NCBI GenBank assembly: GCA_965279375.1
Contig: OZ257156.1
Location: 3,232,001 to 3,296,000 of the forward strand
Length of the DNA stretch: 64,000 nt
Direction of reading: 5' to 3'
Source of the DNA: Gemmatimonas sp.
GTDB lineage: Bacteria; Gemmatimonadota; Gemmatimonadetes; Gemmatimonadales; Gemmatimonadaceae
Position 1 is the first letter of the stretch; each line of letters begins with the position of its first letter. Positions 18,272-36,694 of the stretch are shown here, one piece after another. Under the pieces are notes generated by a model. That model was given only the letters and a program-made list of their open reading frames with translations, was not told where the DNA came from and did no database searches. The translations under genes were made by a program, and so were the position numbers.

Positions 18272-18994
18272 ATGCCCCGTTCGTTTGTCACCAGGCGCCT
18301 GCTGCGCAATGCCGCATTTGTCGTCGCCAGCGTTACCGCGCTCACCGTCGCGCAGCGCGTCTACGCGTCCGATCACCAGGACACGCCCGAAGTCGAGCTG
18401 AATCCGCGTACGGACATCAACGATGTCTATGCGTTCCCGGGCTCCAGCGCCGATCGCATCGCGCTCGTACTGACGACGTCGAGCCCCATCGCGGGCACGT
18501 CGGCGTCGTTCGACCCGAATCTTCTGTATCAGCTGAAGATCGACAACACGGGCGACGCCGTCGAAGATCGCGTCATTCAGATCACCTTCGACGACGGTGT
18601 GGGTTCCGCGCAGAAGTACACCGTGCGCGGCCCGGTCGTACCCTCGATGACCGGCACCAAGACGGCGCTCGTCACGACGGGCGATGTGGTCACGGGCAAT
18701 GTCGGTAGCACGGCAGGTTCCGCCACCGCCACGCAGGTGTTCGCCGGGTTGCGCGCCGATCCGTTCGTGATCGATCTCGAACAGTTCTTCAACATCATCC
18801 CGGACCGTCGCCCGTCCACCGGGCCGCTCTCCGTACAGAATGGTGCGCCCGCCGGAGCGTTCCGCACGCCTGGCGTGGACTTCCTGAAGCCGTTCAATGC
18901 GCTCGCGATCGTCATCGAACTTCCCAAGGCGCTGCTGCAGTCCGCCACCGCTGCTGACGCGAAGTTCGGCGTCTGGGGCACGATCAGCCGCTAG
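18272..18994 (+). CDS. DUF4331 family protein, N-terminal half, exported
   Basis: Signal with TRRLL, then SDHQDTP...RTDINDVYAF, YQLKIDNTGDAVED, VFAGLRADPF, NALAIVIELP; ends with GVWGTISR. Confidence 0.85.
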   Translation: MPRSFVTRRLLRNAAFVVASVTALTVAQRVYASDHQDTPEVELNPRTDINDVYAFPGSSADRIALVLTTSSPIAGTSASFDPNLLYQLKIDNTGDAVEDRVIQITFDDGVGSAQKYTVRGPVVPSMTGTKTALVTTGDVVTGNVGSTAGSATATQVFAGLRADPFVIDLEQFFNIIPDRRPSTGPLSVQNGAPAGAFRTPGVDFLKPFNALAIVIELPKALLQSATAADAKFGVWGTISR

Positions 18995-19071
18995 TTCGTC
19001 GCTGAGTCGCGCCGCATCACCGCAACTGCGCTGCATCTACTACGCCCTTTCACATACTCGGAGCTCTATCC

Positions 19072-19632
19072 ATGCGACAGCTGTTCTCGCCGCGCGCGTT
19101 CGCGCTGGCCCTCGCGATTCCCGTCCTGGCGGCTTGCTCGGACGACAACAACGACGGCGGCGGCATCACCACGCCCACGACGCCCGTCCGCACCTACACG
19201 CAGGTCGAGCGACTCGGCAATCCGCTCGTCAGCGAAGTGTTCTTCATGAAGCGCGATCACGGCCTGCACAACAGCACCGCACCGGCCACCGATGTCGCCA
19301 ATGATTTTGGTGGCAAGATCAAGGCGTTCACGAACGCGTTCAACCGTGGTCCTGCCATCGCCAACACGCTCGCGGCGGTGCTCGTCCCCGACATGTTGAT
19401 GGTCTACCCCAATCGCGCGGCGAACACCTCTGGTTGGTTGAGCTGGGCGCTCGCCAATGGCTACGGCGGACGCAATCTGCAGGATGACGTCGTCGACGCC
19501 GGCCTCACCGCCATCTTTGGCAAGCTGCTCGATCCGACGGCGACCGCGTTGGCTGGACTCACGTCGGACAACATCAGTACGTCGACGCGCACGTACCTGA
19601 CGACCTTCCCGTACCTGGAAGCGGCACGCTGA
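19072..19632 (+). CDS. DUF4331 family lipoprotein, C-terminal half
   Basis: Lipobox LAAC, then QVERLGNPLVSE, PDML, GGRNLQDDVVD and FPYL. Confidence 0.82.
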   Translation: MRQLFSPRAFALALAIPVLAACSDDNNDGGGITTPTTPVRTYTQVERLGNPLVSEVFFMKRDHGLHNSTAPATDVANDFGGKIKAFTNAFNRGPAIANTLAAVLVPDMLMVYPNRAANTSGWLSWALANGYGGRNLQDDVVDAGLTAIFGKLLDPTATALAGLTSDNISTSTRTYLTTFPYLEAAR

Positions 19633-20876
19633 TGTCGATACGGACGATGCGTCGGCTGGTACTCGTTGCCATCGCTGCGGCACTTGGCGGTCTGGCCATC
19701 GTCCGTACGTCAGACCTCACGCCGGCCGCGACAAGGCAAACCACGAAAATCGCGGCGGTACAGCACGAACCCGGATTCTCCGAACGCGATATGCGCGACG
19801 AGCAGATTCGGGTGTGGCATCAGGCCCTCGATGCCGACCCAACGAGCGCGATTGCGTTGGGTCAGCTCGCAGCCTTGCATCTGCAGCGTGCCCGCGAAGG
19901 CGGCACGTGGGATGACTACGTACAGGCCGAGTCATTCGCGCGTCGCTCGCTCGGCAAACGGACACAACGCAATGCGGCGACCGCCTCGACGCTGGTCTCT
20001 GTGTTGCTGGCGCAGCATCGCTTCACGGAAGCGCGCGATGTGGCGGCCGAACTGGTGGAGCGCGAGCCCGACATCCCGCAGTATCGCGCCACGCTCGGCG
20101 AAGTCGCCATGGAGCTTGGTGACGACGCGACGGCCGAGCGGATGTTTCGCTCGGTGTGGCGGGAGCGCCATCTGTTGACGATCGCGCCGCGCGTTGCGCG
20201 TTGGCTCGAACTCACCAATCATGTTCGCGAGGCGCGGCAGCTACTGATTGCGGCGCGCAACGACGCCGTATCGCGACGCGACGTGGCCAAGGAAACGCAG
20301 GCCTGGTTCGAGATGCGCGTCGGCGACCTGGAGCTGCGCGACGGGCATCTGCGCGCAGCCGAGACGGCGTTCCGCGCGGGGCTGGCCATCGAGCCGGATG
20401 ATCCGCGACTTCTTGCGGCAATGGCGCGACTGGCCGACGCGAAGGGCAACGCGGCTGATGTCGCATCGTGGGGAGAACGCGCCATCGGATTGCAGCTCGA
20501 TCCAGCAACGCTCGGCCTCGTAGGCGATGCGTACGCCGCGCAGGGCGATAGTGCACGGGCGGCGGAATACTTCCAGTCTCTCGAAGTCGCGGTCAGCATG
20601 CAGCCGGGAGCGTATCATCGCGCGTGGAGCCTGTACCTGCTCGAGCACGGCCTCCGTGTGGACGACGTGCTGCGCAAGGCGCAGGACGAACTGGTGCAAC
20701 GCAAGGACATCTACGGCTACGACATTCTGGCGCTCGCGCTCTACAAGTCCGGGCGACAGGCGGAGGCACAAGAGGCGATGCGGCAAGCGCTGCGACTGAA
20801 CACGCCCGATCCGCTGTTGCGCCGTCATGCGCAGCTGATCAACGCGCCGTTGATCGCCTCGGCCGTGGTGCGCTGA
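19632..20876 (+). CDS. Tetratricopeptide repeat protein with N-terminal membrane/signal segment
   Basis: Ala/Leu-rich helical repeats (e.g. AETAFRAGLAIEPDD, ALALYKSGRQAEA). TGATG coupling to the upstream gene. Confidence 0.82.
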   Translation: MSIRTMRRLVLVAIAAALGGLAIVRTSDLTPAATRQTTKIAAVQHEPGFSERDMRDEQIRVWHQALDADPTSAIALGQLAALHLQRAREGGTWDDYVQAESFARRSLGKRTQRNAATASTLVSVLLAQHRFTEARDVAAELVEREPDIPQYRATLGEVAMELGDDATAERMFRSVWRERHLLTIAPRVARWLELTNHVREARQLLIAARNDAVSRRDVAKETQAWFEMRVGDLELRDGHLRAAETAFRAGLAIEPDDPRLLAAMARLADAKGNAADVASWGERAIGLQLDPATLGLVGDAYAAQGDSARAAEYFQSLEVAVSMQPGAYHRAWSLYLLEHGLRVDDVLRKAQDELVQRKDIYGYDILALALYKSGRQAEAQEAMRQALRLNTPDPLLRRHAQLINAPLIASAVVR

Positions 20877-20878
20877 AC

Positions 20879-21484
20879 ATGTCGGAACTCTGGGCATTCG
20901 CGCAGCTGGGATTCGGACACATCGTCGCGTGGGATGCGGCGGATCACATTCTGTTCCTGCTGGTTCTGGCGGCTATCTACCGCGGCCGCGATTGGCGCGC
21001 GGCGCTGGCGGTGATCAGCGCGTTCACTGTTGGTCATTCGCTGACGCTCGCGCTCGCGGTCACCGATACGCTCGTGCTCCCTTCCCGCATCGTCGAATTT
21101 CTGATTCCCGTGACGATCGTCGCGACGGGCGTTGAGAATCTGTGGCTGCGCGAACGAGCCGCTGCGGGAACGTCAGCGAGACATCGGCCAATCTTCGCCG
21201 GCCTGTTCGGCCTTGTGCATGGCGCTGGCTTTGCGGGCTACCTCAAGAGTCTCTTCGTGGCGCAGCTCGCGCTCCCGTTGCTTGGCTTCAACCTTGGCAT
21301 CGAGGTGGGGCAGTTGGTCGTGCTCGCCGCCGCTGCGGTCGTATTCCTCACCGGCGATCGACTGTTGCGCGTACTGTTCGCGCCGCGGACCGCCTCGAGT
21401 GCGTTTCAGTGGCGACTGATGTGTGTGTCCGCCGTCATCACCGTGATCGCGAGCGGGTGGGCGTGGGAGCGCTTTCCGCGATGA
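20879..21484 (+). CDS. HupE/UreJ-family membrane protein
   Basis: GFGHI...DHILF, FTVGHSLTL, VEFLIP, FGLVHGAGFA and FNLGIEVGQ. Confidence 0.88.
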   Translation: MSELWAFAQLGFGHIVAWDAADHILFLLVLAAIYRGRDWRAALAVISAFTVGHSLTLALAVTDTLVLPSRIVEFLIPVTIVATGVENLWLRERAAAGTSARHRPIFAGLFGLVHGAGFAGYLKSLFVAQLALPLLGFNLGIEVGQLVVLAAAAVVFLTGDRLLRVLFAPRTASSAFQWRLMCVSAVITVIASGWAWERFPR

Positions 21485-21990
21485 GCACGAACGTGTGGCG
21501 GCGGTGGGGAGTGGTCGCGGCCTCGATGGCAATGCTGGTTGCCTCGCCACGACTGGCGCACGCGCACGCGATCCATACCACGATGACTGTGGTGACCGCC
21601 GATGCCGGAGGGGTCACGCTGCGCATTCGATCGTTCGCGGATGACTTCTCCGGCGCCGTTGCTCGGTATGCCGGCCGGTCGGCTCCTCGCGATTCGTCCG
21701 TGCTGGAGGCCGAAGTGCTGCGCTATGTGCGAGCGCAGTTCACTGCGGCGTCGTCAAGCGGCACTGCACTGCAACTCAGCTCCTGTGGCATCACACGCGC
21801 CAAGGAGCTGTACTGGGTGTGTGTGCGCATTGACGGTGCGCGATCGCTGGCCGGCCTGCTGCTGCGCAACCGCATGCTGACCGAATGGCACGCCGATCAG
21901 GTGAACATCGTGCAGGTTGAAGGCCCCAAATCCCGACGAACGATGCTCTTCACGAAGAACAGTGCTCCCGCCGCTATCGGCGCGGCATGA
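21481..21990 (+). CDS. DUF6702-like exported protein
   Basis: Signal peptide ending AHA followed by HAIHTT, IRSFADDF and NRMLTEWHADQVNIV. ATGA overlap with the HupE gene. Confidence 0.7.
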   Translation: MSTNVWRRWGVVAASMAMLVASPRLAHAHAIHTTMTVVTADAGGVTLRIRSFADDFSGAVARYAGRSAPRDSSVLEAEVLRYVRAQFTAASSSGTALQLSSCGITRAKELYWVCVRIDGARSLAGLLLRNRMLTEWHADQVNIVQVEGPKSRRTMLFTKNSAPAAIGAA

Positions 21991-23056
21991 GCACGGTGTA
22001 GTCGAAGTCGAGCACGACCGCAGGATCGTACGCGCCGTTCGCGTCCTGGTACGGAAAGTCTGCACAGGCGCGATCCTTCGTCGCGACGGTGCGCAGGCGC
22101 ATCGCACCTATGTCCGATCGCCCGGGCAGCGCGTCCTTCGACAACACCTCCGTCCACGCATAGATGGTGTCGCCCGCGAAACAGGGCGCCACGTGCCGCC
22201 CTCCGTTGATGGCCGCGATCGTCTGCGCGTTCGCCAAGCCGTTGAACGACAGCGCACGTGCGAGGCTGATGATGTGGCCACCGTACACGATCCGTCGCCC
22301 GAAGCGTCCCTCGCGTTCCACGTGCGAGTTGAAGTGCACCTTGGCCGTGTTCTGGTAGAGCCGAGCCGCGAGCATGTGCTCCGCCTCCTCGATTGTCATA
22401 CCGTCCACATGATCGATGTGCTCGCCGACGGCGTAGTCGTCCCAGAGAAACGGACTGCCGGCCATGGTCGTGTCGTAGCGCCCCGGTGCGACGGCGTACG
22501 GCACGTGCAGCGTTGCAGTTGCCACAGATTCAGACAACTCGGGGACGACTGGCGTCGGGGCCGCTGCCGACACAGCGCGCTTGCGCACCATGGCCCAGCG
22601 CGTGTACTCGACCACCATCGCACCATGCTGATTGGTTCCCACCGAGCGCACGTACACGACGCCGGTCTTTCCGTCCTTGTTCTCCTTTACGCCCAGCACG
22701 GTGGACGTGGTCGTCACCGTGTCGCCCGGATACAGCGGCTCACCAAACCGACCGTCGGCGTAACCCAGATTGGCGATGGCGTTGAGCGATACGTCAGGCA
22801 CGGTCTTGCCAAAGACCAGGTGAAACGCGAGCAGACTATCCACCGGCGCGGTGGGCAAGCCAAGCGATTGCGCGAACGGCGCTGACGAGTTGATCGCGAA
22901 GCGCCCGCCGAAGAGCGCTGTGTAGAGCGCGACCTCGCCGGTCGTAACCGTGCGCGGCGTGGCGTGCTGAATGACTTGTCCGAGAAAGAAGTTCTCGAAG
23001 AAGTTGCCAGCACGCGTCTTACCGGTGAGTCCGGTGTCGACCGGCGTCGCGTTCAT
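21974..23056 (-). CDS. mch: Mesaconyl-C1-CoA hydratase (beta-methylmalyl-CoA dehydratase), double MaoC/hotdog fold
   Basis: GNFFENF...HATPRT, FHLVFGKTVPDVSLNAIANLGY, YQNTAKVHFN and VYGGHIISLARALSFNGL. Confidence 0.92.
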   Translation of the reverse strand: MNATPVDTGLTGKTRAGNFFENFFLGQVIQHATPRTVTTGEVALYTALFGGRFAINSSAPFAQSLGLPTAPVDSLLAFHLVFGKTVPDVSLNAIANLGYADGRFGEPLYPGDTVTTTSTVLGVKENKDGKTGVVYVRSVGTNQHGAMVVEYTRWAMVRKRAVSAAAPTPVVPELSESVATATLHVPYAVAPGRYDTTMAGSPFLWDDYAVGEHIDHVDGMTIEEAEHMLAARLYQNTAKVHFNSHVEREGRFGRRIVYGGHIISLARALSFNGLANAQTIAAINGGRHVAPCFAGDTIYAWTEVLSKDALPGRSDIGAMRLRTVATKDRACADFPYQDANGAYDPAVVLDFDYTVLMPRR

Positions 23057-23060
23057 CGGT

Positions 23061-24104
23061 TCAGAACCCATAGGCTGCAGCGAGCTCCGGATCCTTTCGT
23101 GCGACGAGCTCTGCGAGGTCCACGATCACCTTCGCCTGCTTCCACGTCGCGTCGTCCTGCATCTTCCCGTCGATAGTGGCCACACCGCTGCCCGACGGAA
23201 TCGCCTCGATCACGCGCTTGGCGAACAGCACTTCCTTCACATCCGGACTGAAGACACGACGCGCGATGGCGATTTGATTGGGAGCGAGTGACCACGCGCC
23301 GCTGCATCCCATGATGAATGCGTTGCGGAACTGTGCCTCGCATCCCGCTTCGTCCTTGAGATCGCCAAACGGACCGTAGAACGCACGGATACCGTGTGAC
23401 ACGCAAGCGTCCACCATGCGCGCGACGGTGTAGTGCCACAGATCCTGCTGCACGAACGTTCGCGCCGCGCCATCGTCGGTTGGATCACCCAGCACGCCGT
23501 AGAATGGATGCCCGCCGCCGACTCGCGTTGTCTTCATGCCGCGCGATGCCGCAAGATCCGCCGGCCCGAGGCTCATGCCATGCATACGCGGACTCGCGCC
23601 CGCGATCTGCTCGACGTTCTTGACCCCTTCGGCGGTCTCCAGAAGCGCATGCAGCAGGATGGGGCGCTTCACCTGATAGCGCGCCTCCAGCAACGCGAGA
23701 TACTGATCGACAAAGTGGATGTCCCACGGTCCCTCCACCTTGGGAATCATGAACACGTCCACCTTGTTGCCGGCTTCGCGCACGATGTCGTGCAGATCGT
23801 CGAGGAACCACGGGCTGTTGAGACAGTTCACTCGCACCCAGAGTGCGGTGTCGCCAAAGTCATTGTCGCGCGCAACGCTGATGAACCCCTGTCGCGCCGC
23901 TTCCTTGTCGTCGATGGGGATAGCGTCTTCCAGATTGCCGCAGAGGACATCGGTCTGCTTGGCCATCTCGGGCACACGGGCGCGGATCTTCTCGATGTGC
24001 GGCGGAAAGAAGTGAATCATCCGCTCGGGGCGCACCGGGAGTTCGCGCAACGGCACAGGTGCACCGATGGCGAGCGGCTTGTAGAAATTCACAGGGAGCT
24101 TCAT
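23061..24104 (-). CDS. mcl: (S)-malyl-CoA/beta-methylmalyl-CoA/(S)-citramalyl-CoA lyase, Chloroflexus type
   Basis: [11 protein letters not shown]...[47 protein letters not shown] and [11 protein letters not shown] match the C. aurantiacus MMC lyase as recalled. Confidence 0.93.
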
Positions 24105-24140
24105 ACCGGTTACCAGTTTCGGGTTACGGGTGGCGAGTAG

Positions 24141-25361
24141 TTAGGAGACGGGCCCCGACACCACATGCGCGTCGTGGAGTGCGCCAACGGCGGCGGCGCT
24201 GAGGCCGAGCACGTCGAGCAGGATCTCGTCGGTGTGTTGGCCGAGTCGTGGAGCGCTGGCTGCGGGGAGTCGGTCGGAGGCGCTGAAGTGCAGGGGAGTG
24301 CCGGGAGTCAGATAGTGGCCGGTATCCGGATGCGTCACGTCAGCAAACAGCGGGTTGTCTGTTGAGAGATCGAGATCTTCCAACAGCGCTTCGCGCACCG
24401 TCCGATACGGGCCCCATGTCACGCGATGTGCGTCCAGCGTCGTGCGCACATCGGTCAGCGGGCGTGCGGCAAACCACGGTTCGAGCAGCGCGGCGATCTG
24501 TTCGCGTGCCAGGAACCGGTTGCCCTCGGTCGCGAGATCGAGCCCCAGCGACTCGCCGAGCGCGCGCACATCCTCGGCGATGCCCGTTGCCTTCACCAGT
24601 GTGCTCCACTGCAGCTCCGTGAGTCCGACGACCATCACGCGCGCACCGTCCGCCGTGGTGAAATCGCGTCCGAAGGCACCGTACAGGTAGTTGCCGTAAC
24701 GCGGCCGATCCTCATCGTTGACGGACACTTCCGCGATCATCCCCAGATTGCCGAGCATCGCCAGCCCGACATCCTTGAGTGCGAGCGTCACGAGCTGCCC
24801 CTCACGCGTACGCGAGCGATGGCGTTCGGCTGCGAGAATCGCCACCGCGATCATGTTCCCCGTGATGGCGTCCCACGCCGGAAATACATGGTTAACCGGA
24901 TCGGACGCGTCGGGTGCGCCTGTCAGGGCGGGGAAGCCGAGCGCAGGATTGACGGTATAGTCCACCTCGGATCCGCCGTCCCGGCGGCCGAGGAGGTTGA
25001 CCATGATCAGATCGTCGCGCTGGGCGCGCAGGCGTTCGTAGTCGAGCCAGCCGCGCGCGGGGAAGTTGGTGCTGAAGATGCCGGCGTCCGCACCCGGTGC
25101 GCAGATCAGTTGCGTGAGCAATTCCTGGCCGCGCGGGTTTCGCAAATCCACCGCAATCGATCGCTTGCCCTTGTTGAGCCCATCCCAGAACAGGCTATGG
25201 CCCGTCGACTGTGAGACGGGCCAGCGTCGATAGTCGAGGCCACCGCCAATCTGATCGAAGCGGATCACATCAGCGCCAAGCTGGGCCAGCGTCATGCCAC
25301 CCAGCGGCGCCGCGACGAACGCGGACCCTTCGACGATGCGCATGCCGCGCAACACGCCCAT
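24141..25361 (-). CDS. mct: Mesaconyl-CoA C1-C4 CoA transferase (2-methylfumaryl-CoA isomerase), family III
   Basis: EGSAFVAAPLGGMTLAQLGADVIRFD, GRRDGGSEVDYTVNP, NHVFPAWD and GNYLYGAFGRDF are diagnostic of Mct. Confidence 0.93.
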   Translation of the reverse strand: MGVLRGMRIVEGSAFVAAPLGGMTLAQLGADVIRFDQIGGGLDYRRWPVSQSTGHSLFWDGLNKGKRSIAVDLRNPRGQELLTQLICAPGADAGIFSTNFPARGWLDYERLRAQRDDLIMVNLLGRRDGGSEVDYTVNPALGFPALTGAPDASDPVNHVFPAWDAITGNMIAVAILAAERHRSRTREGQLVTLALKDVGLAMLGNLGMIAEVSVNDEDRPRYGNYLYGAFGRDFTTADGARVMVVGLTELQWSTLVKATGIAEDVRALGESLGLDLATEGNRFLAREQIAALLEPWFAARPLTDVRTTLDAHRVTWGPYRTVREALLEDLDLSTDNPLFADVTHPDTGHYLTPGTPLHFSASDRLPAASAPRLGQHTDEILLDVLGLSAAAVGALHDAHVVSGPVS

Positions 25362-26587
25362 CAGATGACCCGCTTCTGCCGCAGCGTTGCGATCTCCGAA
25401 TCGCTCAGTTCCAGCAATTCTCGCAGCACTTCGTCGGTGTGTTGCCCAAGCGTGGGGCCTAGGCTGCGGATGCTCCCGGGCGTCTCTGACAGCAGCGGTA
25501 CAGGTGACGGCACGATGATGGACTCACCGGTCGAGGGTTCGTCCACCGCCACAAGATTGCGGCGCGCGTGAAACTGACGATCGCCAAAGATGTCCGCGAT
25601 GTTGTTGAGCGGTCCTGCCGGCGTATCGGTGGCGTAGCAGCGCTCGAGCACCTCTTCTCTCGTAAGCGAGCCGCACCAGTCGCGGACGATCTCGTTCACG
25701 TCGTGGCGGTGATGCAACCGCGTCTTCTGCTCGCCGTATGTACTCGACGAGGCAAGCTCGGGGCGGCCCATCGCCAGTGCCAGTCGCATGAACAGCTTGT
25801 CGGTGGCGCACGAAATGGCCACCCACTTGCCGTCCTTGGTGGCAAAGTGTCCGTGAGGACAGGCGAAGTCGTTGTGCGACGAGCCCAGTCGCTCGCGCAC
25901 GATGCCGTACATCGCAAAGGCGGGTGCCAGCTCCTCGGTGGCGCGGAATACCGATTCATACAGTGCCGCGTCCACGTACTGCCCTTCGCCCGTCGCCTCG
26001 CGATGACGTAGCGCCATCAGCACGCCGAGGCAGCCATAGAGCCCGGTCATGTAGTCGCCGAGCGTCGTGGAGCCCGGGGTCACGGGAGTGCCCTTGGGCA
26101 TACCGGCGAGGTATGCGATGCCGCCGACGGCATGCGCGACACGCGCGAATCCAGGTCGGTCGCTGTAGGGGCCCGTTTGTCCGTAGCCCGTGACCCGCAG
26201 CATGATCAGTCCCGGATTGATCTCGTGCAGCACATCCCACCCCAGGCCCCACTTCTCGAGCGTGCCGGTGCGGAAGTTCTCGCAGAGGATGTCGGTCTTG
26301 GCGACAAGCTGCTTGAACACCTCGACGCCTTCGGGCCGGCGCAGATCGAGCGTGACGGAGCGCTTGTTGCGCCCTTCGCTCATCCACGTGAGCGTATCGC
26401 CGCGCTTGGAGGGGGTGCCGAAGCGACGCAGGGCATCGCCGCCGACCGGATGCTCCACCTTGAGCACGTCCGCGCCGAACTCGCCGAGAATGGTGGCGCA
26501 GTACGGCGCCGCGATCACGGTCGCAATATCCATCACGCGGATGCCGTCCAGCGGCAACGTGCTGTTCGCTTGCTTCGTGGAGGTCAT
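25361..26587 (-). CDS. smtB: Succinyl-CoA:(S)-malate CoA-transferase subunit B
   Basis: Family III CoA-transferase with [41 protein letters not shown] and ISCATDKLF, as recalled for Chloroflexus SmtB. Confidence 0.88.
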
Positions 26588-26658
26588 GGCTGCGTCGAAA
26601 TCCGCTGAGCGTGAGGCATTCGTCGGTTAACCGTTCGTTGGTCGGCCGCAGGACCGGA

Positions 26659-27909
26659 CTAGATGATCTTGTGTTGCCGCAGGCGCTGAATCTCGGCCGC
26701 CGATATGCCGAGCAGCTCGCGCATGACCTCCACCGTGGCATCACCGAGCGTCGGTCCCAGACTGTCGATGCGCCCGGGCGTCGCCGAGAGCGTTGGCACG
26801 ACGCCTGGCACCACGACATCTCCGATGCCCGGTTCATCGAAGCGCGCGAGGTTGCCGCGGGCGATGAAGTGTTCGTCCTCGAAGATGTCGGCGATGCTGT
26901 TGACCTTCCCCACCGGCACTTCCTCGGCCAGACACTTCGTCAGCACCTCGTCGCGCAGTTGACTCCCCACCCACTCGATCACGAGCTGATTGACGACATC
27001 GCGCGCCGCCAGCCGCTTGCGCTGATCGCCGTACAATCCGGACGACGCGAGCTGCGGTTGCTCCATCGCCACCGAGAGTCGCTCGAACATCTTGTCGGTC
27101 GTGCAGGCGATCGCGATCCACTTGTCGTCTTTCGTGCGGAAGTGCCCGTGCGGACAGGCCACGAAGCTCCCCGATCCTTCGCGCTCGCGAATCCGTCCAT
27201 CCACGCCGTAGGCAGCCGCGATCTCTTCCAACACGCGAAAAACGGCCTCGTAGATGCCAACGTCGATGATCTGCCCCTTGCCGGTCCGTTCCTTGTGGCG
27301 CAGCGCGATCATGATGCCGATCGCCCCGTACAGACTGGCGATGTAGTCGCCGAGGGGCACGGTGCCCGGAAGTACGGGCGTTTCACCCGGAAAGCCCGCG
27401 AGATAGTTCAAGCCACCGAACGCCTGCGCGATGTGCGCAAACCCGGAGCGACGGCGATACGGACCTGTCTGTCCGTAGCCGGATACCCGCAGCATCACGA
27501 GACCCGGGTTTGCGGCGCTGAGTTCCTTCCAGCCGAGTCCCCACTCTTCCATCGTGCCCGGACGGAAGTTCTCGATCAGCACATCCGATTTGGCCACCAG
27601 CTTGAGAAAGAGCTGCACGCCTTCCGGTTGTCGCAGATCGACCGTGACGGACTTCTTGTTGCGCGCCTCACTCAGCCAGTTGAGCGTCGCGTCGGGGCGC
27701 TTGGTCGGCGTGCCGAAGCGCCGCATCGGATCACCCGCGATCGGGTGTTCGACCTTGTACACCTCGGCGCCGAACTCTCCGAGCATCGATGCGGCGTAAG
27801 GGCCGGCGAGAAAGTTGCCGACGTCCAGCACTCGCACGCCGGTGAGCGGGCGTACCGTCTGGCCCTGCTCGGCCGCTGGTGCCGCCTCCGCGTCATTGGC
27901 TCGAGTCAT
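26659..27909 (-). CDS. smtA: Succinyl-CoA:(S)-malate CoA-transferase subunit A
   Basis: Paralogous family III transferase (GNFLAGPYAAS, GFAHIAQAFGG, AGFPGETPVLPGTVPLGDY) directly upstream of smtB. Start trimmed to ATG 27909. Confidence 0.86.
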   Translation of the reverse strand: MTRANDAEAAPAAEQGQTVRPLTGVRVLDVGNFLAGPYAASMLGEFGAEVYKVEHPIAGDPMRRFGTPTKRPDATLNWLSEARNKKSVTVDLRQPEGVQLFLKLVAKSDVLIENFRPGTMEEWGLGWKELSAANPGLVMLRVSGYGQTGPYRRRSGFAHIAQAFGGLNYLAGFPGETPVLPGTVPLGDYIASLYGAIGIMIALRHKERTGKGQIIDVGIYEAVFRVLEEIAAAYGVDGRIREREGSGSFVACPHGHFRTKDDKWIAIACTTDKMFERLSVAMEQPQLASSGLYGDQRKRLAARDVVNQLVIEWVGSQLRDEVLTKCLAEEVPVGKVNSIADIFEDEHFIARGNLARFDEPGIGDVVVPGVVPTLSATPGRIDSLGPTLGDATVEVMRELLGISAAEIQRLRQHKII

Positions 27910-28056
27910 CGCGTGCACTCCCACGAAAGCCTGAAGTTCGGCAGCGCCGATACGGGATCGGGCCGCCGCGAGTATTTTCCACTGAATCACTACCGTCACG
28001 CTGCGCTGCTGCAACTTTGTGCAGCTCTTGAGCGCGCTTCCCGCCTTCGCCCTGTC

Positions 28057-28905
28057 ATGACAGAACCTGTGGTGGAGTATCGCGACTGGATAGGGCGCAT
28101 GGAAAGTCTTCACGATCCGCTCTGTCCAACGCAAGCAGCGGCTGCCGCTGCGACATTCGATGAGCCGGACACGCCCGTCGGCGTTGGTGATCCGCTGCCC
28201 CCACTGTGGCACTGGTTCTACTTTCTGCCTCGCGCGATGCAGCAGACGCTGAACGGCGATGGCCACCCCGCGCGTGGGGAATTCATGCCACCGGTACCGT
28301 ATCCGCGGCGCATGTTCGCTGGCGCGCGCCTCACGGTGCATCGCCCTCTTCTCATTGGGCATGGCGCGCAGCGAGAGGGCGTCATTCGTGATGTCGTGCT
28401 CAAGTCGGGTCGGACAGGAGCGCTCGCCTTTGTCACGGTGGGCTATCGCATCGTGCAGGACGGCGTGCTCTGTATCGAGGAGGAGCAGGACATCGTGTAT
28501 CGGGAGCCGGGTGTTCCGGTGGTGGCGCCGAATGTCACCGCGTTGCCGCCCCTCGCCCCCGGGGTATGGTCACGCATGGTTTCGCCGGACTCACGTCTGC
28601 TCTTTCGGTTTTCGGCGCTAACGTTCAACGCGCACCGAATTCACTACGATCGCGCGTACGCGATGGAGCAGGAGGGGTACCCGGGACTCGTCGTGCACGG
28701 GCCGCTGACCGCCATGCTGATGGTGGGTCTTGTGCGCCAACACTCGCCGCGGTCGGTTCGCGGCTTCACCTTTCGCGGCTTGGCTCCTCTCTTCGACCTC
28801 TCCCCGTTTCGGATTTCCGCCCGCCCGGTCTCGGATGACGTGCACTGTCTGGCGGAAGGCCCGGACGGAAAGCCGGCGCTCGAAGCCACCGTTCAGCTGC
28901 AGTAG
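28057..28905 (+). CDS. meh: Mesaconyl-C4-CoA hydratase (HTD2-like double hotdog)
   Basis: DWIGR, LPPLWHWFYF, DGHP.RG.FMPP, RRMFAG, LFRFSALTFNAHRIHYD and GLVVHGPL. The real start is ATG 28057, not 26611. Confidence 0.88.
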   Translation: MTEPVVEYRDWIGRMESLHDPLCPTQAAAAAATFDEPDTPVGVGDPLPPLWHWFYFLPRAMQQTLNGDGHPARGEFMPPVPYPRRMFAGARLTVHRPLLIGHGAQREGVIRDVVLKSGRTGALAFVTVGYRIVQDGVLCIEEEQDIVYREPGVPVVAPNVTALPPLAPGVWSRMVSPDSRLLFRFSALTFNAHRIHYDRAYAMEQEGYPGLVVHGPLTAMLMVGLVRQHSPRSVRGFTFRGLAPLFDLSPFRISARPVSDDVHCLAEGPDGKPALEATVQLQ

Positions 28906-29015
28906 CCCGTTCCGTTAGCTCGTGACTGCGAGGCGCGGCGTACGACGCCGTACGCCGTCTCGTGAATGTCGCGCGGCGTCACGTCTGTCGTCGTCCGTTG
29001 CCGCTCTCGATATCC

Positions 29016-32000
29016 ATGGATCAGTACCGCGTCCTGCAATTCGCGCCGGAAGGATTTCTCGTCCTCGACGCCGAGTGTCGCATCCGATTCGGCAACGCGG
29101 CGGCCGAACAACTCTGTGCCGCACGCGGAACGGAGTGGATGGGCGCGCTGCTCTGGCAGGCGCTTCCGGTCGGATCGCCGGAGTTGCTCGAAGCGTCGGT
29201 CCGTCGCGCGGCCGCCGAGCAAAACAGCGTGGAGTTTGTCGGCCGACACGAGGCGTCGGGCGACGAGTTCCGGGTGACGATCTTCCGCGCGGAGGACTGC
29301 CTCGTCGTGTCGCTGCTCGATCTCGAGGCGCTGCAGTCGACCGAGCGTGCGCTGCTGGCTCGAGAGGCGCAGCTGGAACGCGTACTTGTTGCGACAGGCG
29401 CGGCGGCATTCGACCTCGATCTCGTCACCGGCGAGACGTATCTCAACGCGCACTTCGGGGAGCTCTTTGGCTACCGCGAAGGAGAGGCTCCAACTGACTG
29501 GCCGTCGTACGCGTCGCACTTCGACGCGGACGATCTCCGTGCTGCAGAAGCCGCCGCGCATCAGGCGCTGCTCAGCGGCACATCGTACACCGTCGACTGC
29601 CACATCACGCGTGCGGACGGACGATCGGCGTGGGTGCGACTCCGTGGCGATGTGATGCCCAACGAAGAGGGACGTGCCATTCGGAGCTCGGGCACGGTGA
29701 TCGACATTACCGCCGAGCGCGAACGGGCGACGGCGTTGCAGGAGAGCCAGCGTCAACTCAGCGCGGCGCAGCGGTTGGCGGGGGTGGGCAGTTGGTCGTG
29801 GGACATTCGAACCGGCGCGGTCGCGTGGTCCGATGAGATGTTCCGCATCCTTGGCTATGATGTCGCCTCGGTGGCTGCGTCGTTCGAGCTGGTAACCGCA
29901 CTGGCAGTCGACGATACGCGGCGCGAGGAGTTCATGGCGCGCGTGCAGCGCTCCCTCGAGGGAGAGTCCGGATACGACTTCGAGATGCCGATGCGGCGTC
30001 CGGACGGACAGATCCGGCTGCTGCACACCCGAGGCGAGGTGGAGCGCGATGGGAGTGGCGCGCCCATTCGCATGACTGGCACGGCCGAAGACGTGACCGA
30101 TCGACGCGCGGCCGTCATGGCGCTTCGCCGCTCGGAGGAGGAGCTCTTCCGCGCGCAACGCATGGCGCGCATTGGCAGCTTCGTGCGCTCAGTGGAGACG
30201 GGATCGCTGTGGTGGTCGCCGATGACACGCACGATTCTCGAGATCGGCGACGACGAGGTCCCCACCCTCGAACTCGCGCTGACGCGCGTGCCGGCGGAGG
30301 CGGCGGATCGCTACCGACAGTTGGCGAAGCGCGCCGCGGAGACTGGTTTGCCTTACGAGATGGAGTCCGAGGCGGTGGTACCCAGCGGACGGCGGCTCGT
30401 GCTCCGATTGTCCGGCGAAGTGGATCGCGACGCGGAAGGACGCACGATCTCCATCCACGGCCTGCTCGCGGACATCACGGAGCAGCGCGAACAGGAGCGC
30501 GCTCTGCGCGAGAGCGAGGTGCGCTTTCGCACCGTCTGGGAGGCCTCGCCGATCGGCATTCGCCTGACCGACGCGCAAGGCAAGACGTTGTACGTGAATC
30601 CGCGTGCGTTGCAGATGTTTGCCTGCACCGAAGGGGAGTTTCTCGCGGAGCGCTGGCGTGATCATCTGCATCCGGACGACCGTGAACGCGTGGCGCTGGA
30701 AGGGCGTGACGCGGTACAGCGGGAGCGCGACAAGCGGGTGGAGTACCGTGTGATGCGGCCAGATGGACGGACCATCTACGTGCGGGCGACCATCGCCGCC
30801 GTGCGGGCACCGGACGGTCGTTTTGCGGGTCACGTTGGCGCACTCGAAGATCTCACCGAAGAAGTCGAGGCGCGGCGCGAGAAGGAGATGCTGGAGCAGC
30901 AGATGCACCAGGCGCAGAAGCTCGAGTCGCTCGGCGTGCTGGCCGGTGGGATTGCGCACGACTTCAACAACCTGCTCGTGGGTGTGCTGACGAATGCGAG
31001 CATGGCGCTGATGGACCTCTCGCCGGACGCCCCAGCGTACGAGACCGTGCGCGATATCGAACGCGCCGCCCAGCGCGCCGCCGACCTCACGCGGCAGCTG
31101 CTCGCGTATTCGGGCAAAGGACGATTCATCATCGAGCCGTTGTCGCTCTCCGAGTTGGCCGTCGAGATGACGCAGCTCTTGCGCACGGTCGTCTCCAAGC
31201 GTGCCACACTGCAGCTCGACCTGCACCACGAACTGCCACTCGTGCGGGGCGACGCCACGCAGCTGCGGCAAGTGGTGATGAACCTCATCACGAACGCCTC
31301 GGACAGCCTCGGCGAGTCCGACGGTGAGATCACGCTGCGCACGACACGCCAAGTGCTGCAGCACGGTATCCCCGACGCAATCAGCTTCGGCGGTCCGCTC
31401 GCCCCGGGTGAGTACGTGGTGCTGGAAGTCGCCGATACAGGCGTCGGTATGGAGCCCGCGACGATCCAGCGGATCTTCGATCCGTTCTTCACGACCAAGT
31501 TCACCGGGCGCGGCCTTGGCCTCGCGGCGACGCTTGGCATCGTGCGCGGTCACGACGGCGCAATCGGTGTGCGCAGTCGTCCGGGGATAGGCACCAGCAT
31601 GTCGCTCTACTTTCCCGTGTCCAACGGCGTGCGGCGCGAGGCTGCAGCCGGCCTCGCTGCTCCGCTCTCCGGTCACGGCGCGATTCTGGTTGTGGACGAC
31701 GACGATGGCGTGCGTGCAGTCGCTCGCGCACTCTTGCAGCGACAGGGGTTCGGTGTCATTCTCGCGGCGAACGGTCAGGAGGCGGTCGCACAGTTCGCGG
31801 CGCATCGGGCGGAAATCCGCGCGGTGCTGCTGGACCTGACCATGCCGGTGATGGGTGGCGAAGAGGCACTGCGGCGACTCCGAGAGGCGGACCCGACGGT
31901 GCGCGTCGTCCTGATGTCGGGCTATAGTGATGTGGACGTGGAGGGCACCTTTGCCAGTGCCGGCCTGTCCGGGTTCCTGCAGAAGCCGTTTCGCGCCGAT

Positions 32001-32042
32001 GATGTGTACCGCACGCTCACACTGGCGCTCGCGGACTCCTAG
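29016..32042 (+). CDS. Cytoplasmic multi-PAS hybrid histidine kinase/receiver
   Basis: About five PAS/PAC repeats, [32 protein letters not shown] and a C-terminal receiver. No TM segment. Confidence 0.9.
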   Translation: MDQYRVLQFAPEGFLVLDAECRIRFGNAAAEQLCAARGTEWMGALLWQALPVGSPELLEASVRRAAAEQNSVEFVGRHEASGDEFRVTIFRAEDCLVVSLLDLEALQSTERALLAREAQLERVLVATGAAAFDLDLVTGETYLNAHFGELFGYREGEAPTDWPSYASHFDADDLRAAEAAAHQALLSGTSYTVDCHITRADGRSAWVRLRGDVMPNEEGRAIRSSGTVIDITAERERATALQESQRQLSAAQRLAGVGSWSWDIRTGAVAWSDEMFRILGYDVASVAASFELVTALAVDDTRREEFMARVQRSLEGESGYDFEMPMRRPDGQIRLLHTRGEVERDGSGAPIRMTGTAEDVTDRRAAVMALRRSEEELFRAQRMARIGSFVRSVETGSLWWSPMTRTILEIGDDEVPTLELALTRVPAEAADRYRQLAKRAAETGLPYEMESEAVVPSGRRLVLRLSGEVDRDAEGRTISIHGLLADITEQREQERALRESEVRFRTVWEASPIGIRLTDAQGKTLYVNPRALQMFACTEGEFLAERWRDHLHPDDRERVALEGRDAVQRERDKRVEYRVMRPDGRTIYVRATIAAVRAPDGRFAGHVGALEDLTEEVEARREKEMLEQQMHQAQKLESLGVLAGGIAHDFNNLLVGVLTNASMALMDLSPDAPAYETVRDIERAAQRAADLTRQLLAYSGKGRFIIEPLSLSELAVEMTQLLRTVVSKRATLQLDLHHELPLVRGDATQLRQVVMNLITNASDSLGESDGEITLRTTRQVLQHGIPDAISFGGPLAPGEYVVLEVADTGVGMEPATIQRIFDPFFTTKFTGRGLGLAATLGIVRGHDGAIGVRSRPGIGTSMSLYFPVSNGVRREAAAGLAAPLSGHGAILVVDDDDGVRAVARALLQRQGFGVILAANGQEAVAQFAAHRAEIRAVLLDLTMPVMGGEEALRRLREADPTVRVVLMSGYSDVDVEGTFASAGLSGFLQKPFRADDVYRTLTLALADS

Positions 32043-32062
32043 CACCGTTTTCAGGATTGCGC

Positions 32063-36694
<4,632 letters not shown>

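Follow-up and report, generated by a model that had tools for sequence, protein, structure and literature searches.

A gene set for the complete 3-hydroxypropionate bi-cycle, with photosynthesis and Calvin-cycle genes, in a genome of the Gemmatimonadaceae

The six-gene locus

The stretch of DNA analysed here, called the window, comprises 64,000 nucleotides of the Gemmatimonas sp. assembly GCA_965279375.1 (contig OZ257156.1, positions 3,232,001 to 3,296,000 of the forward strand). It carries six genes that resemble the glyoxylate-assimilation module of the 3-hydroxypropionate (3-HP) bi-cycle of Chloroflexus: smtA, smtB, mct, mcl and mch in one row, and meh divergent from smtA. Positions within this module are window positions, whereas those elsewhere in the genome, designated G000, refer to its contig (C1). 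The features of the locus are as follows.

21974..23056, minus strand: mch, predicted mesaconyl-C1-CoA hydratase / beta-methylmalyl-CoA dehydratase, 360 aa, double MaoC (PDB 4e3e, 8hgn; PF01575, PF19315)
23061..24104, minus strand: mcl, predicted trifunctional malyl-/beta-methylmalyl-/citramalyl-CoA lyase of the Chloroflexus type, 347 aa (PDB 6kin/4l7z; diagnostic residues)
24141..25361, minus strand: mct, predicted mesaconyl-CoA transferase, 406 aa (TIGR04253, 687 bits; PDB 7xkg/8apq; tree)
25361..26587, minus strand: smtB, predicted subunit B of the SmtAB transferase, 408 aa (PF02515; 80% identity to the syntenic Viridilinea gene)
26659..27909, minus strand: smtA, predicted subunit A of succinyl-CoA:(S)-malate CoA-transferase, a family III CoA-transferase, 416 aa (PF02515; 81% identity to the syntenic Viridilinea gene)
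27910..28056, no strand: divergent smtA/meh intergenic region, 147 bp, the presumed site of both promoters (from the sequence)
28057..28905, plus strand: meh, predicted mesaconyl-C4-CoA hydratase, 282 aa, divergent from smtA (60% identity to its Viridilinea counterpart, which is likewise placed and divergent)

All six open reading frames (ORFs) are free of internal stops within these bounds and occur as single copies in G000, in agreement with the original prediction of an intact operon with a divergent meh. A second possible start of mch is an ATG at 23071. The gaps along smtA-smtB-mct-mcl-mch measure 71, -1, 36 and 4 bp, the end of smtB and the start of mct overlapping by one base, and these sizes appear typical of operon spacing. 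The start codons of meh and smtA are 147 bp apart, and a promoter and terminator scan of this interval returned nothing, including no sigma-70-like site. The module has a GC content of 0.62-0.66, and 0.73-0.81 at third codon positions (GC3), near that of host genes such as rpoB and gap (GC3 0.82-0.84). Order and orientation of the six genes are kept in most of the relatives' loci compared, so the arrangement is not a matter of chance, and in G268 the pcs-mcr pair directly adjoins the module.

Two variant modules (L127 in G103 and L128 in G041) were also seen, in which meh directly faces mct and smtAB does not intervene.

Identity of the encoded proteins

Mcl matched the PDB entries 6kin (664 bits) and 4l7z (658 bits), against 196 bits for the Rhodobacter-type entry 4l9y and 187 bits for 5ugr. 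Entry 4L7Z is the Mcl of C. aurantiacus, whose catalytic and Mg-binding residues are given in the relevant sections of PMC3832036. Residues N57, E59, D60, R91, E156, D183 and D317 of the G000 protein correspond to Asn58, Glu60, Asp61, Arg92, Glu157, Asp184 and Asp318 of that enzyme; all of the listed residues are kept, including the clade-diagnostic Asn, which the same sections describe as invariant within the Chloroflexus cluster and as Asp in the Rhodobacter enzyme. Identity is 81-84% to six Chloroflexales-named proteins and 39-41% to Ruegeria Mcls. The protein is thereby predicted to be an Mcl of the Chloroflexus and not of the Rhodobacter type, as had been proposed from the window.

Mct matched two solved mesaconyl-CoA transferases (7xkg, 649 bits; 8apq, 642 bits), with the next family at 88 bits, and aligned over its full length to the TIGR04253 equivalog model at 687 bits, slightly below the cut-off of 725. 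Mch matched 4e3e (583 bits) and 8hgn (470 bits). SmtA and SmtB are paralogs (58% identical), and their A-B naming follows gene order. No dedicated model or structure exists for SmtA, SmtB and Meh, which were assigned only by identity to, and synteny with, the same-order genes of Candidatus (Ca.) Viridilinea (Chloroflexales, L006), at 81%, 80% and 60% identity, respectively. The PDB matches of Meh are itaconyl-CoA hydratases only (best 8khg, 225 bits). Mch, Meh and SmtAB are nevertheless best described as predicted bi-cycle orthologues within a conserved operon, and the gene names first given to the six ORFs can be retained.

Host genome and remaining bi-cycle enzymes

G000 consists of one contig of 5,309,734 bp, with 99.95% completeness and 0.95% contamination. 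The host belongs to the Gemmatimonadaceae, most likely to the genus Gemmatimonas, and not to the Chloroflexales; the phylum had been judged correctly from the window.

The autotrophy considered in the original prediction depends on mcr and pcs, and both are present elsewhere in the genome as an overlapping gene pair (C1:3950229-3959473). Pcs (1819 aa) matches PDB 6eqo with 2496 bits over residues 23-1811 and has ligase, hydratase and reductase regions, as expected of a trifunctional propionyl-CoA synthase. Mcr (1262 aa) matches 8hi4 with 1215 bits over residues 33-1262 and has two NAD(P)-binding and two YxxxK motifs, in keeping with a bifunctional, full-length enzyme. The other steps are covered as well. 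AccB, accC and accD were found above cut-off and accA by motif only. A second biotin carboxylase/carboxyltransferase/carrier cluster is read as Pcc; its carboxyltransferase scores below the mmdA cut-off and was assigned by context. Methylmalonyl-CoA mutase (Mcm) is split into N- and C-terminal subunits and accompanied by MeaB, the epimerase (Epi) is above cut-off, and SdhAB, Mdh and a class I fumarase were found. Thus, all 13 enzymes of the 3-HP bi-cycle are predicted to be encoded, and the set appears complete.

The photosynthesis genes sought along with these lie in a cluster at about C1:3.083-3.131 Mb, in which pufL, pufM, pufC and acsF are above cut-off. In addition, G000 has PntAB, a SoxC-like sulfite dehydrogenase above cut-off, a cbb3/aa3-type oxidase (by motif), and adjacent GlcD-, GlcE- and GlcF-like genes that score below cut-off. 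Its NiFe hydrogenase has PDB 7uus as best match (884 bits), which we take to be Huc, a group 2a hydrogenase, and the G000 enzyme is accordingly called Huc-type.

An FccB-like flavoprotein of flavocytochrome c sulfide dehydrogenase (FCSD) was also noted (L205:6164-7462, minus strand; C1:2026160-2027461 in G000). It has all three FCSD-related Pfam regions; the gene upstream of or next to fccB had no family match, leaving the cytochrome partner unconfirmed.

Isocitrate lyase and malate synthase were not found in G000, nor was soxB above cut-off, in searches whose controls were positive. PFOR of the E. coli type was not found by tblastn. The closest match to E. coli Gcl (38%) heads an ilv/leu operon. 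The ethylmalonyl-CoA pathway was considered and rejected: no crotonyl-CoA carboxylase/reductase was found by tblastn (the Pcs reductase region matched itself and one 24% match), and Mcl is not of the Rhodobacter type. Absences seen by motif only are weak because the RuBisCO and phosphoribulokinase motifs missed genuine genes, and none is claimed for CoxL, SQR, malic enzyme, bchE or hemN.

Calvin-cycle genes

Two further features of G000 concern CO2 fixation.

C1:608549-612022: cbbM-cbbF-cbbP operon, encoding predicted form II RuBisCO, class 1 fructose-1,6-bisphosphatase (FBPase) and phosphoribulokinase (PDB and family-model matches)
C1:3051350-3052768, plus strand (L198:1351-2769): divergent class II fructose-bisphosphate (FBP) aldolase, above the PF01116 cut-off

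CbbM matches PDB 5c2c ('Form II RubisCO') with 887 bits and has an intact active site (E48, N111, K166, K168, K191, D193, E194, H287, R288, K329 and S368, in what we take to be the numbering of the R. rubrum enzyme). Phosphoribulokinase and FBPase exceed their cut-offs (NF011997, 502 vs 362; NF006779, 509 vs 349), and the CbbF product probably also has sedoheptulose-1,7-bisphosphatase activity. Regeneration enzymes lie elsewhere in the genome: transketolase above cut-off, Pgk by tblastn, the divergent class II Fba, and Gap, Tpi, Rpe and RpiB by motif only. With these, the predicted Calvin cycle is complete at the gene level. An incomplete cycle for want of FBP aldolase had been entertained after several blank searches and was discarded when the gene was located through the divergent class II aldolase of a relative.

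This long (~470 aa) divergent aldolase is a genus-wide feature, found in 64 of 87 genomes and at first overlooked in G000. It scores only 47-64 bits on PF01116, and automated annotation may report gaps in glycolysis or the Calvin cycle.

The cbb operon is native to its host, as gene order in relatives, the CbbM tree and read-contig linkage indicate. The cbbM-cbbF-cbbP order also occurs in G368, G136, G253, G188 and G270. In a quick LG+G4 tree of 22 rows, CbbM falls within a Gemmatimonadaceae clade (SH-aLRT 100) and a subclade with three same-genus genomes (92), apart from Proteobacteria; it shares 86% identity with a form II RuBisCO named from Accumulibacter. The operon has a GC3 of 0.80, like host genes. 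An 8,313-bp contig present in four public runs of a single study contains cbbM, cbbF and most of cbbP with the upstream flanking genes. It shows no differences from the assembly, and its depth tracks that of neighbouring contigs in all four runs (19/14/17, 54/49/50, 8/8/6 and 30/25/29). The runs come from mixed communities, possibly the source of the assembly itself, so they demonstrate linkage and give no independent support. No RNA data set was listed among those containing the sequence, which speaks neither for nor against expression. The cbb and 3-HP loci are more than 2.6 Mb apart.

Divergently upstream of cbbM lies a gene for a 170-aa protein (C1:607935-608447; L132:15936-16448, minus strand) that matches no Pfam or NCBIfam family. 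G311, G368, G136, G188 and G270 have it in the same position, conserved at 58-65%, and it is a candidate cbb-associated factor. CbbR was not found by motif.

Distribution and link to phototrophy

The distribution of the pathway was assessed in a family sample of 301 Gemmatimonadaceae genomes, drawn evenly and each at least 85% complete. Mcr was found in 33 genomes (7 of 64 genera), mct in 29 and pufM in 54. As many as 29 of the 33 mcr carriers had pufM, compared with 25 of the 268 other genomes, and the four carriers without it are drafts, 85-94% complete. Conversely, 29 of the 54 pufM-bearing genomes encode a full-length Mcr, 27 of them together with Mct. The pathway tracks phototrophy in the Gemmatimonadaceae. 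RuBisCO-family matches occurred in 31 genomes of the sample, 13 of them at form I/II level (E <=1e-90, classed by score). G000 is the sole mcr carrier among these 13; the other 32 mcr carriers have no form I/II RuBisCO, and eight of them gave RuBisCO-like scores only.

A survey of all 87 genomes of the genus found mcr in 19, mcl in 19, both in 13, pufM in 57 and cbbM in 4, with pufM in 17 of the 19 mcr carriers. Mcr occurred without mcl in six genomes (G347, G349, G360, G314, G353, G354) and mcl without mcr in six others (G315, G351, G358, G312, G348, G357). Some of these half-carriers are 94-99% complete; the mcr of G347 is in two pieces, and the mcl match of G351 contains one TAG. Separate occurrence of the two halves is as expected for assimilatory modules. 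Pcs was seen beside mcr in the individual loci compared.

The only other genus member that pairs cbbM with mcr is G311, which also has pcs, smtB, mct, mcl and mch. It is a metagenome-assembled genome (MAG) of 350 contigs, 92% complete, in which pufM was not found and cbbM (residues 1-314) is cut by the end of a 4.3-kb contig. The four nearest Mcr relatives (85-90%) have no cbbM.

A chosen comparison set consisted of 43 mcr-positive and 28 mcr-negative genomes, 25 of the latter being pufM-positive members of the family sample. NiFe hydrogenase was present in 11 of 43 and 8 of 28, respectively, giving no link to H2, whereas malate synthase was scarcer in carriers (5 of 43 vs 10 of 28). Among cultured species, a protein named from Gemmatimonas groenlandica (P0271) is a full-length Mcr orthologue, with 77% identity over 1230 residues.

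Phylogeny and mobility

In a quick Mct tree of 73 rows, including one from Chloroflexales, the 33 Gemmatimonadaceae proteins group as a single clade (SH-aLRT 89), whose branching mostly matches the genera; Viridilinea, a Rubrivivax and a gammaproteobacterium are joined to it (SH-aLRT 98). This clade and the gene order conserved in most loci suggest that the module is old in the Gemmatimonadaceae and patchily kept. Among 72,556 plasmid records there was no match to Mcr, nor any to Mcl with an identity of 60% or more, and a crude scan found no integrase or transposase motifs near the module or the cbb locus.

A quick Mcl tree suggested that the Chloroflexales are nested in the Gemmatimonadaceae, which would place the origin of the module in the Gemmatimonadota. 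This nesting was rejected as unsupported because approximately unbiased (AU) tests did not reject Gemmatimonadaceae monophyly (p 0.55 and 0.53), the outgroup branches of the tree are very long, and its Chloroflexales rows had been chosen as best matches to the query.

Neighbouring genes and other observations

A multi-PAS hybrid histidine kinase/receiver gene (window 28962-32042, plus strand) begins 56 bp 3' of meh on the same strand and is a possible regulator. It is followed by the gene for the glutamate synthase large subunit (32057-36694, plus strand; above cut-off), and no small-subunit gene was evident immediately downstream when the ORF listing was inspected by eye. On the other side, a cluster at 18272-21990 (plus strand), convergent with mch, contains two DUF4331 genes, a TPR protein, HupE/UreJ_2 and DUF6702.

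Elsewhere in G000, the transaldolase ORF (C1:3046329-3047072; L186:6330-7073, plus strand) is just 247 aa long with its C-terminus apparently out of frame, possibly through a frameshift or assembly error. At C1:562907-581747 (plus strand) lie three adjacent giant ORFs of 2534, 2617 and 1181 aa from stop to stop, the first of which, judged by eye, starts like SpvB/toxin-complex B.

Discussion

The distribution data guide our view of what the bi-cycle does in G000. The association with pufM and the absence of one with hydrogenase, together with the scarcity of malate synthase in carriers and the separate halves in 12 genus genomes, point to light-powered, mixotrophic co-assimilation of acetate, glycolate and propionate with bicarbonate, which we hold with moderate confidence to be the most likely use of the pathway. 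The reaction chemistry is established and the enzymes receive their roles by orthology; expression, flux direction and physiology we infer from the genes, intact motifs, synteny and distribution observed.

In the proposed scheme, acetyl-CoA and HCO3- would give malonyl-CoA through acetyl-CoA carboxylase (ACC), which Mcr would reduce to 3-HP with two NADPH and Pcs would convert to propionyl-CoA with NADPH and ATP. Propionyl-CoA could then be carboxylated to succinyl-CoA by Pcc, Epi and Mcm and be converted by way of Smt, Sdh and fumarase into malate or malyl-CoA, a route that would replace the missing glyoxylate shunt during growth on acetate or propionate. Alternatively, Mcl would couple propionyl-CoA with glyoxylate, derived from malyl-CoA or from glycolate via GlcDEF, and the product would reach pyruvate and acetyl-CoA via Mch, Mct, Meh and again Mcl with no loss of CO2. 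Cyclic photophosphorylation would provide ATP. Most of the NADPH would be drawn from organic substrates, through PntAB and the oxidative pentose phosphate pathway, and H2 or sulfide might add to it. The cbbM-cbbF-cbbP operon, which was inherited separately, may act as a second CO2 and electron sink, probably at low O2. Such a set would allow acetate or propionate and HCO3- to be built into C4 acids without a glyoxylate shunt, and glyoxylate, HCO3- and three NADPH to be turned into pyruvate without CO2 release; as a closed bi-cycle, it would turn three HCO3- into pyruvate.

Several observations weigh against co-assimilation as the principal role. The Huc-type hydrogenase, the FccB-like flavoprotein and the SoxC-like dehydrogenase make inorganic donors available to G000. 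The half-carriers are draft MAGs, 65-99% complete, whose missing genes may be assembly gaps, and related genomes are not independent, so that co-occurrence counts overstate associations. All 29 mct carriers of the family sample are also mcr-positive, which agrees with a closed cycle and with two modules alike. Glyoxylate might also exit via glycine cleavage or the beta-hydroxyaspartate cycle.

Co-assimilation, facultative autotrophy and photorespiratory salvage are not mutually exclusive. It is conceivable, though rather unlikely, that G000 is a facultative photolithoautotroph that would run the closed bi-cycle, the Calvin cycle or both with H2 or sulfide as donor, and make NADPH by reverse electron flow and PntAB. 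Both fixation pathways are gene-complete, PntAB is present alongside the Huc-type hydrogenase, and growth of carbon-fixing species is stimulated by H2 via group 2a hydrogenases according to parts of PMC7784904. However, the same parts report no growth benefit from H2 for G. aurantiaca, NiFe hydrogenase was not seen in 32 of the 43 mcr carriers compared, and in G000 neither soxB above cut-off nor a confirmed cytochrome partner of the FccB-like protein was found. Autotrophy in the phylum is also without physiological confirmation (PMC11316326).

A broader version, in which light with H2 or sulfide would drive the form II RuBisCO Calvin cycle and the closed bi-cycle in a facultative photoautotroph, while the Mcl-Mch-Mct-Meh loop doubles as a natural form of the carbon-positive photorespiration bypass so far only engineered, seems doubtful. 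The bypass taken by itself we regard as improbable. By this route, 2-phosphoglycolate from an O2-prone form II RuBisCO would pass through a phosphatase and GlcDEF to glyoxylate, and the loop, fed by ACC, Mcr and Pcs, would carry glyoxylate to pyruvate while fixing one more HCO3-. In its favor, the cbb operon is intact with all catalytic residues, glcDEF is present, malate synthase was not found and the nearest Gcl-like gene belongs to an ilv/leu operon, acsF and the motif-detected cbb3/aa3-type oxidase point to an oxic lifestyle, and G311 repeats the pairing. On the other hand, the pairing is much younger and rarer than the module: form I/II RuBisCO is missing from 32 of the 33 mcr carriers in the family sample, and cbbM from the four nearest relatives with mcr. 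The two loci are also distant from each other. No phosphoglycolate phosphatase reached cut-off in G000 (best HAD match 107 vs 180 bits), and the evidence from G311 comes from a fragmented MAG with cbbM on a short contig.

Catabolism of the C5 dicarboxylates itaconate, mesaconate and citramalate to pyruvate and acetyl-CoA, as in the Ict/Ich/Ccl route, is very unlikely. It would suit the itaconyl-CoA hydratase matches of Meh and the weak matches of Mch and Mcl to the RipB/Ich and RipC/Ccl models, but these are far under cut-off (108 of 340 and 130 of 375 bits), itaconate degradation needs neither Mct nor Mch, every mct carrier of the family sample has mcr, and pcs-mcr adjoins the module in G268. 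An assembly chimera, with cbb genes from a co-occurring proteobacterium, could draw on the mixed communities of the four runs, possibly the source of the assembly, and is largely refuted by the single contig with its low contamination, the flanked and difference-free cbb contig whose depth follows its neighbours, the place of CbbM in the tree and the host-like GC3.

Light-powered co-assimilation, if correct, would reach beyond this genome. Aerobic anoxygenic phototrophs (AAPs) are, to our knowledge, treated as unable to fix CO2. Given that 29 of the 54 pufM-bearing family genomes have a full-length Mcr and 27 of these also Mct, co-assimilation of bicarbonate driven by light may be widespread among phototrophic Gemmatimonadaceae, though overlooked so far. 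The Mcr named from G. groenlandica makes the function of the bi-cycle outside the Chloroflexota look testable in culture. If both fixation pathways run, the natural pairing would reveal how O2 or substrate sets the division between two routes, and whether the CO2-fixing photorespiration bypass that crop engineers seek is already in use in nature.

Comparison with known systems

The complete bi-cycle is already known at the level of the Gemmatimonadaceae. The module is not new to the Gemmatimonadota, and the original prediction had cautioned that genome surveys might already list the phylum. Garritano (2022; PMC9802188) indeed describes, in the sections concerned, all 3-HP bi-cycle genes, in the same operon order, for 3300015204_6 and 3300015196_3, both MAGs of the Gemmatimonadaceae, and passages of a preprint (10.64898/2026.09.02.748891) report 3-HP bi-cycle markers again for freshwater Gemmatimonadota, with no enrichment for photoautotrophy; our pufM counts qualify the latter statement. 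G000 and the Garritano MAGs are alike in family, complete pathway and operon. The supplement shows (bacterio)chlorophyll synthesis pathways at 85-100% in these MAGs, which its main text links to inorganic donors and not to light. They are soil MAGs, 87-90% complete, with no second fixation pathway listed there, whereas G000 has cbbM-cbbF-cbbP and consists of one contig at 99.95% completeness. The passages of PMC9802188 on two-pathway MAGs name 23, all of them Sulfolobaceae with the 3-hydroxypropionate/4-hydroxybutyrate (HP/HB) and dicarboxylate/4-hydroxybutyrate (DC/HB) cycles, and none pairs the 3-HP bi-cycle with the Calvin cycle. Phototrophy together with a Calvin operon, beyond what the window could reveal, is more unusual than the module itself.

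The smtA-smtB-mct-mcl-mch order is stated for Chloroflexus and Roseiflexus in the part of the PMC9802188 supplement on operons, and we saw it partly in Viridilinea. G000 is like Chloroflexus aurantiacus and Roseiflexus in the 13 enzymes, this order and the divergent meh, and shares with Chloroflexales bi-cycle hosts a group 2a hydrogenase and a type II reaction centre. It differs in its Gemmatimonadaceae host, its mesophilic-type photosynthesis cluster with acsF and its Calvin operon, and no glyoxylate-shunt enzymes were found in it; its autotrophy is putative.

Ca. Accumulibacter, Ca. Thiosymbion, Ca. Competibacter and Kentron share an smt/mct/mcl/mch/meh-type module with G000, and the modules of the first three, like that of Kentron, are partial. 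Passages of 10.1101/540435 propose co-assimilation for this module outside the Chloroflexota and describe Kentron as lacking mcr and pcs. G000, unlike Kentron, has mcr and pcs, so that its cycle would close.

Mujakic et al. (2023; PMC10581226) report form II RuBisCO in sections on wastewater Gemmatimonadota MAGs, and as 'hydroxypropion' does not occur in the main text, its coexistence with the bi-cycle is not described there. Freshwater phototrophic Gemmatimonadota were declared to be without carbon-fixation genes after a RuBisCO-centred search, according to parts of PMC8547001. Term searches of the main texts found no mention of hydroxypropionate in PMC8547001, PMC7844134 or PMC9426454, and no 'hydroxypropion' in the G. 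groenlandica species description. For three proteobacterial AAP MAGs, portions of PMC13702023 give KEGG-level 3-HP completeness, with rbcL in one Acetobacterales MAG and ambiguous wording on whether that MAG has both. In the literature covered, from which subscription journals were mostly absent, we found no description of a complete Calvin cycle and a complete Chloroflexus-type bi-cycle in one Gemmatimonadota genome. G000 and the wastewater MAGs have in common the phylum and form II RuBisCO, the cbbM-cbbF-cbbP order being kept in five relatives of G000.

A synthetic CO2-fixing 3-HP photorespiratory bypass was reportedly engineered into a cyanobacterium by Shih et al. in 2014. The bypass and G000 have the same set (ACC, Mcr, Pcs, Mcl, Mch, Mct, Meh) beside RuBisCO and glycolate dehydrogenase; in G000, unlike the bypass, the set is natural, RuBisCO is of form II and the function is putative. 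Set against all of these systems, G000 adds a closed genome in which the bi-cycle genes occur with a photosynthesis cluster and, in a rare pairing, with an intact Calvin gene set. The surveys add an association of bi-cycle and phototrophy across the family, and an Mcr assigned to a named species in culture.

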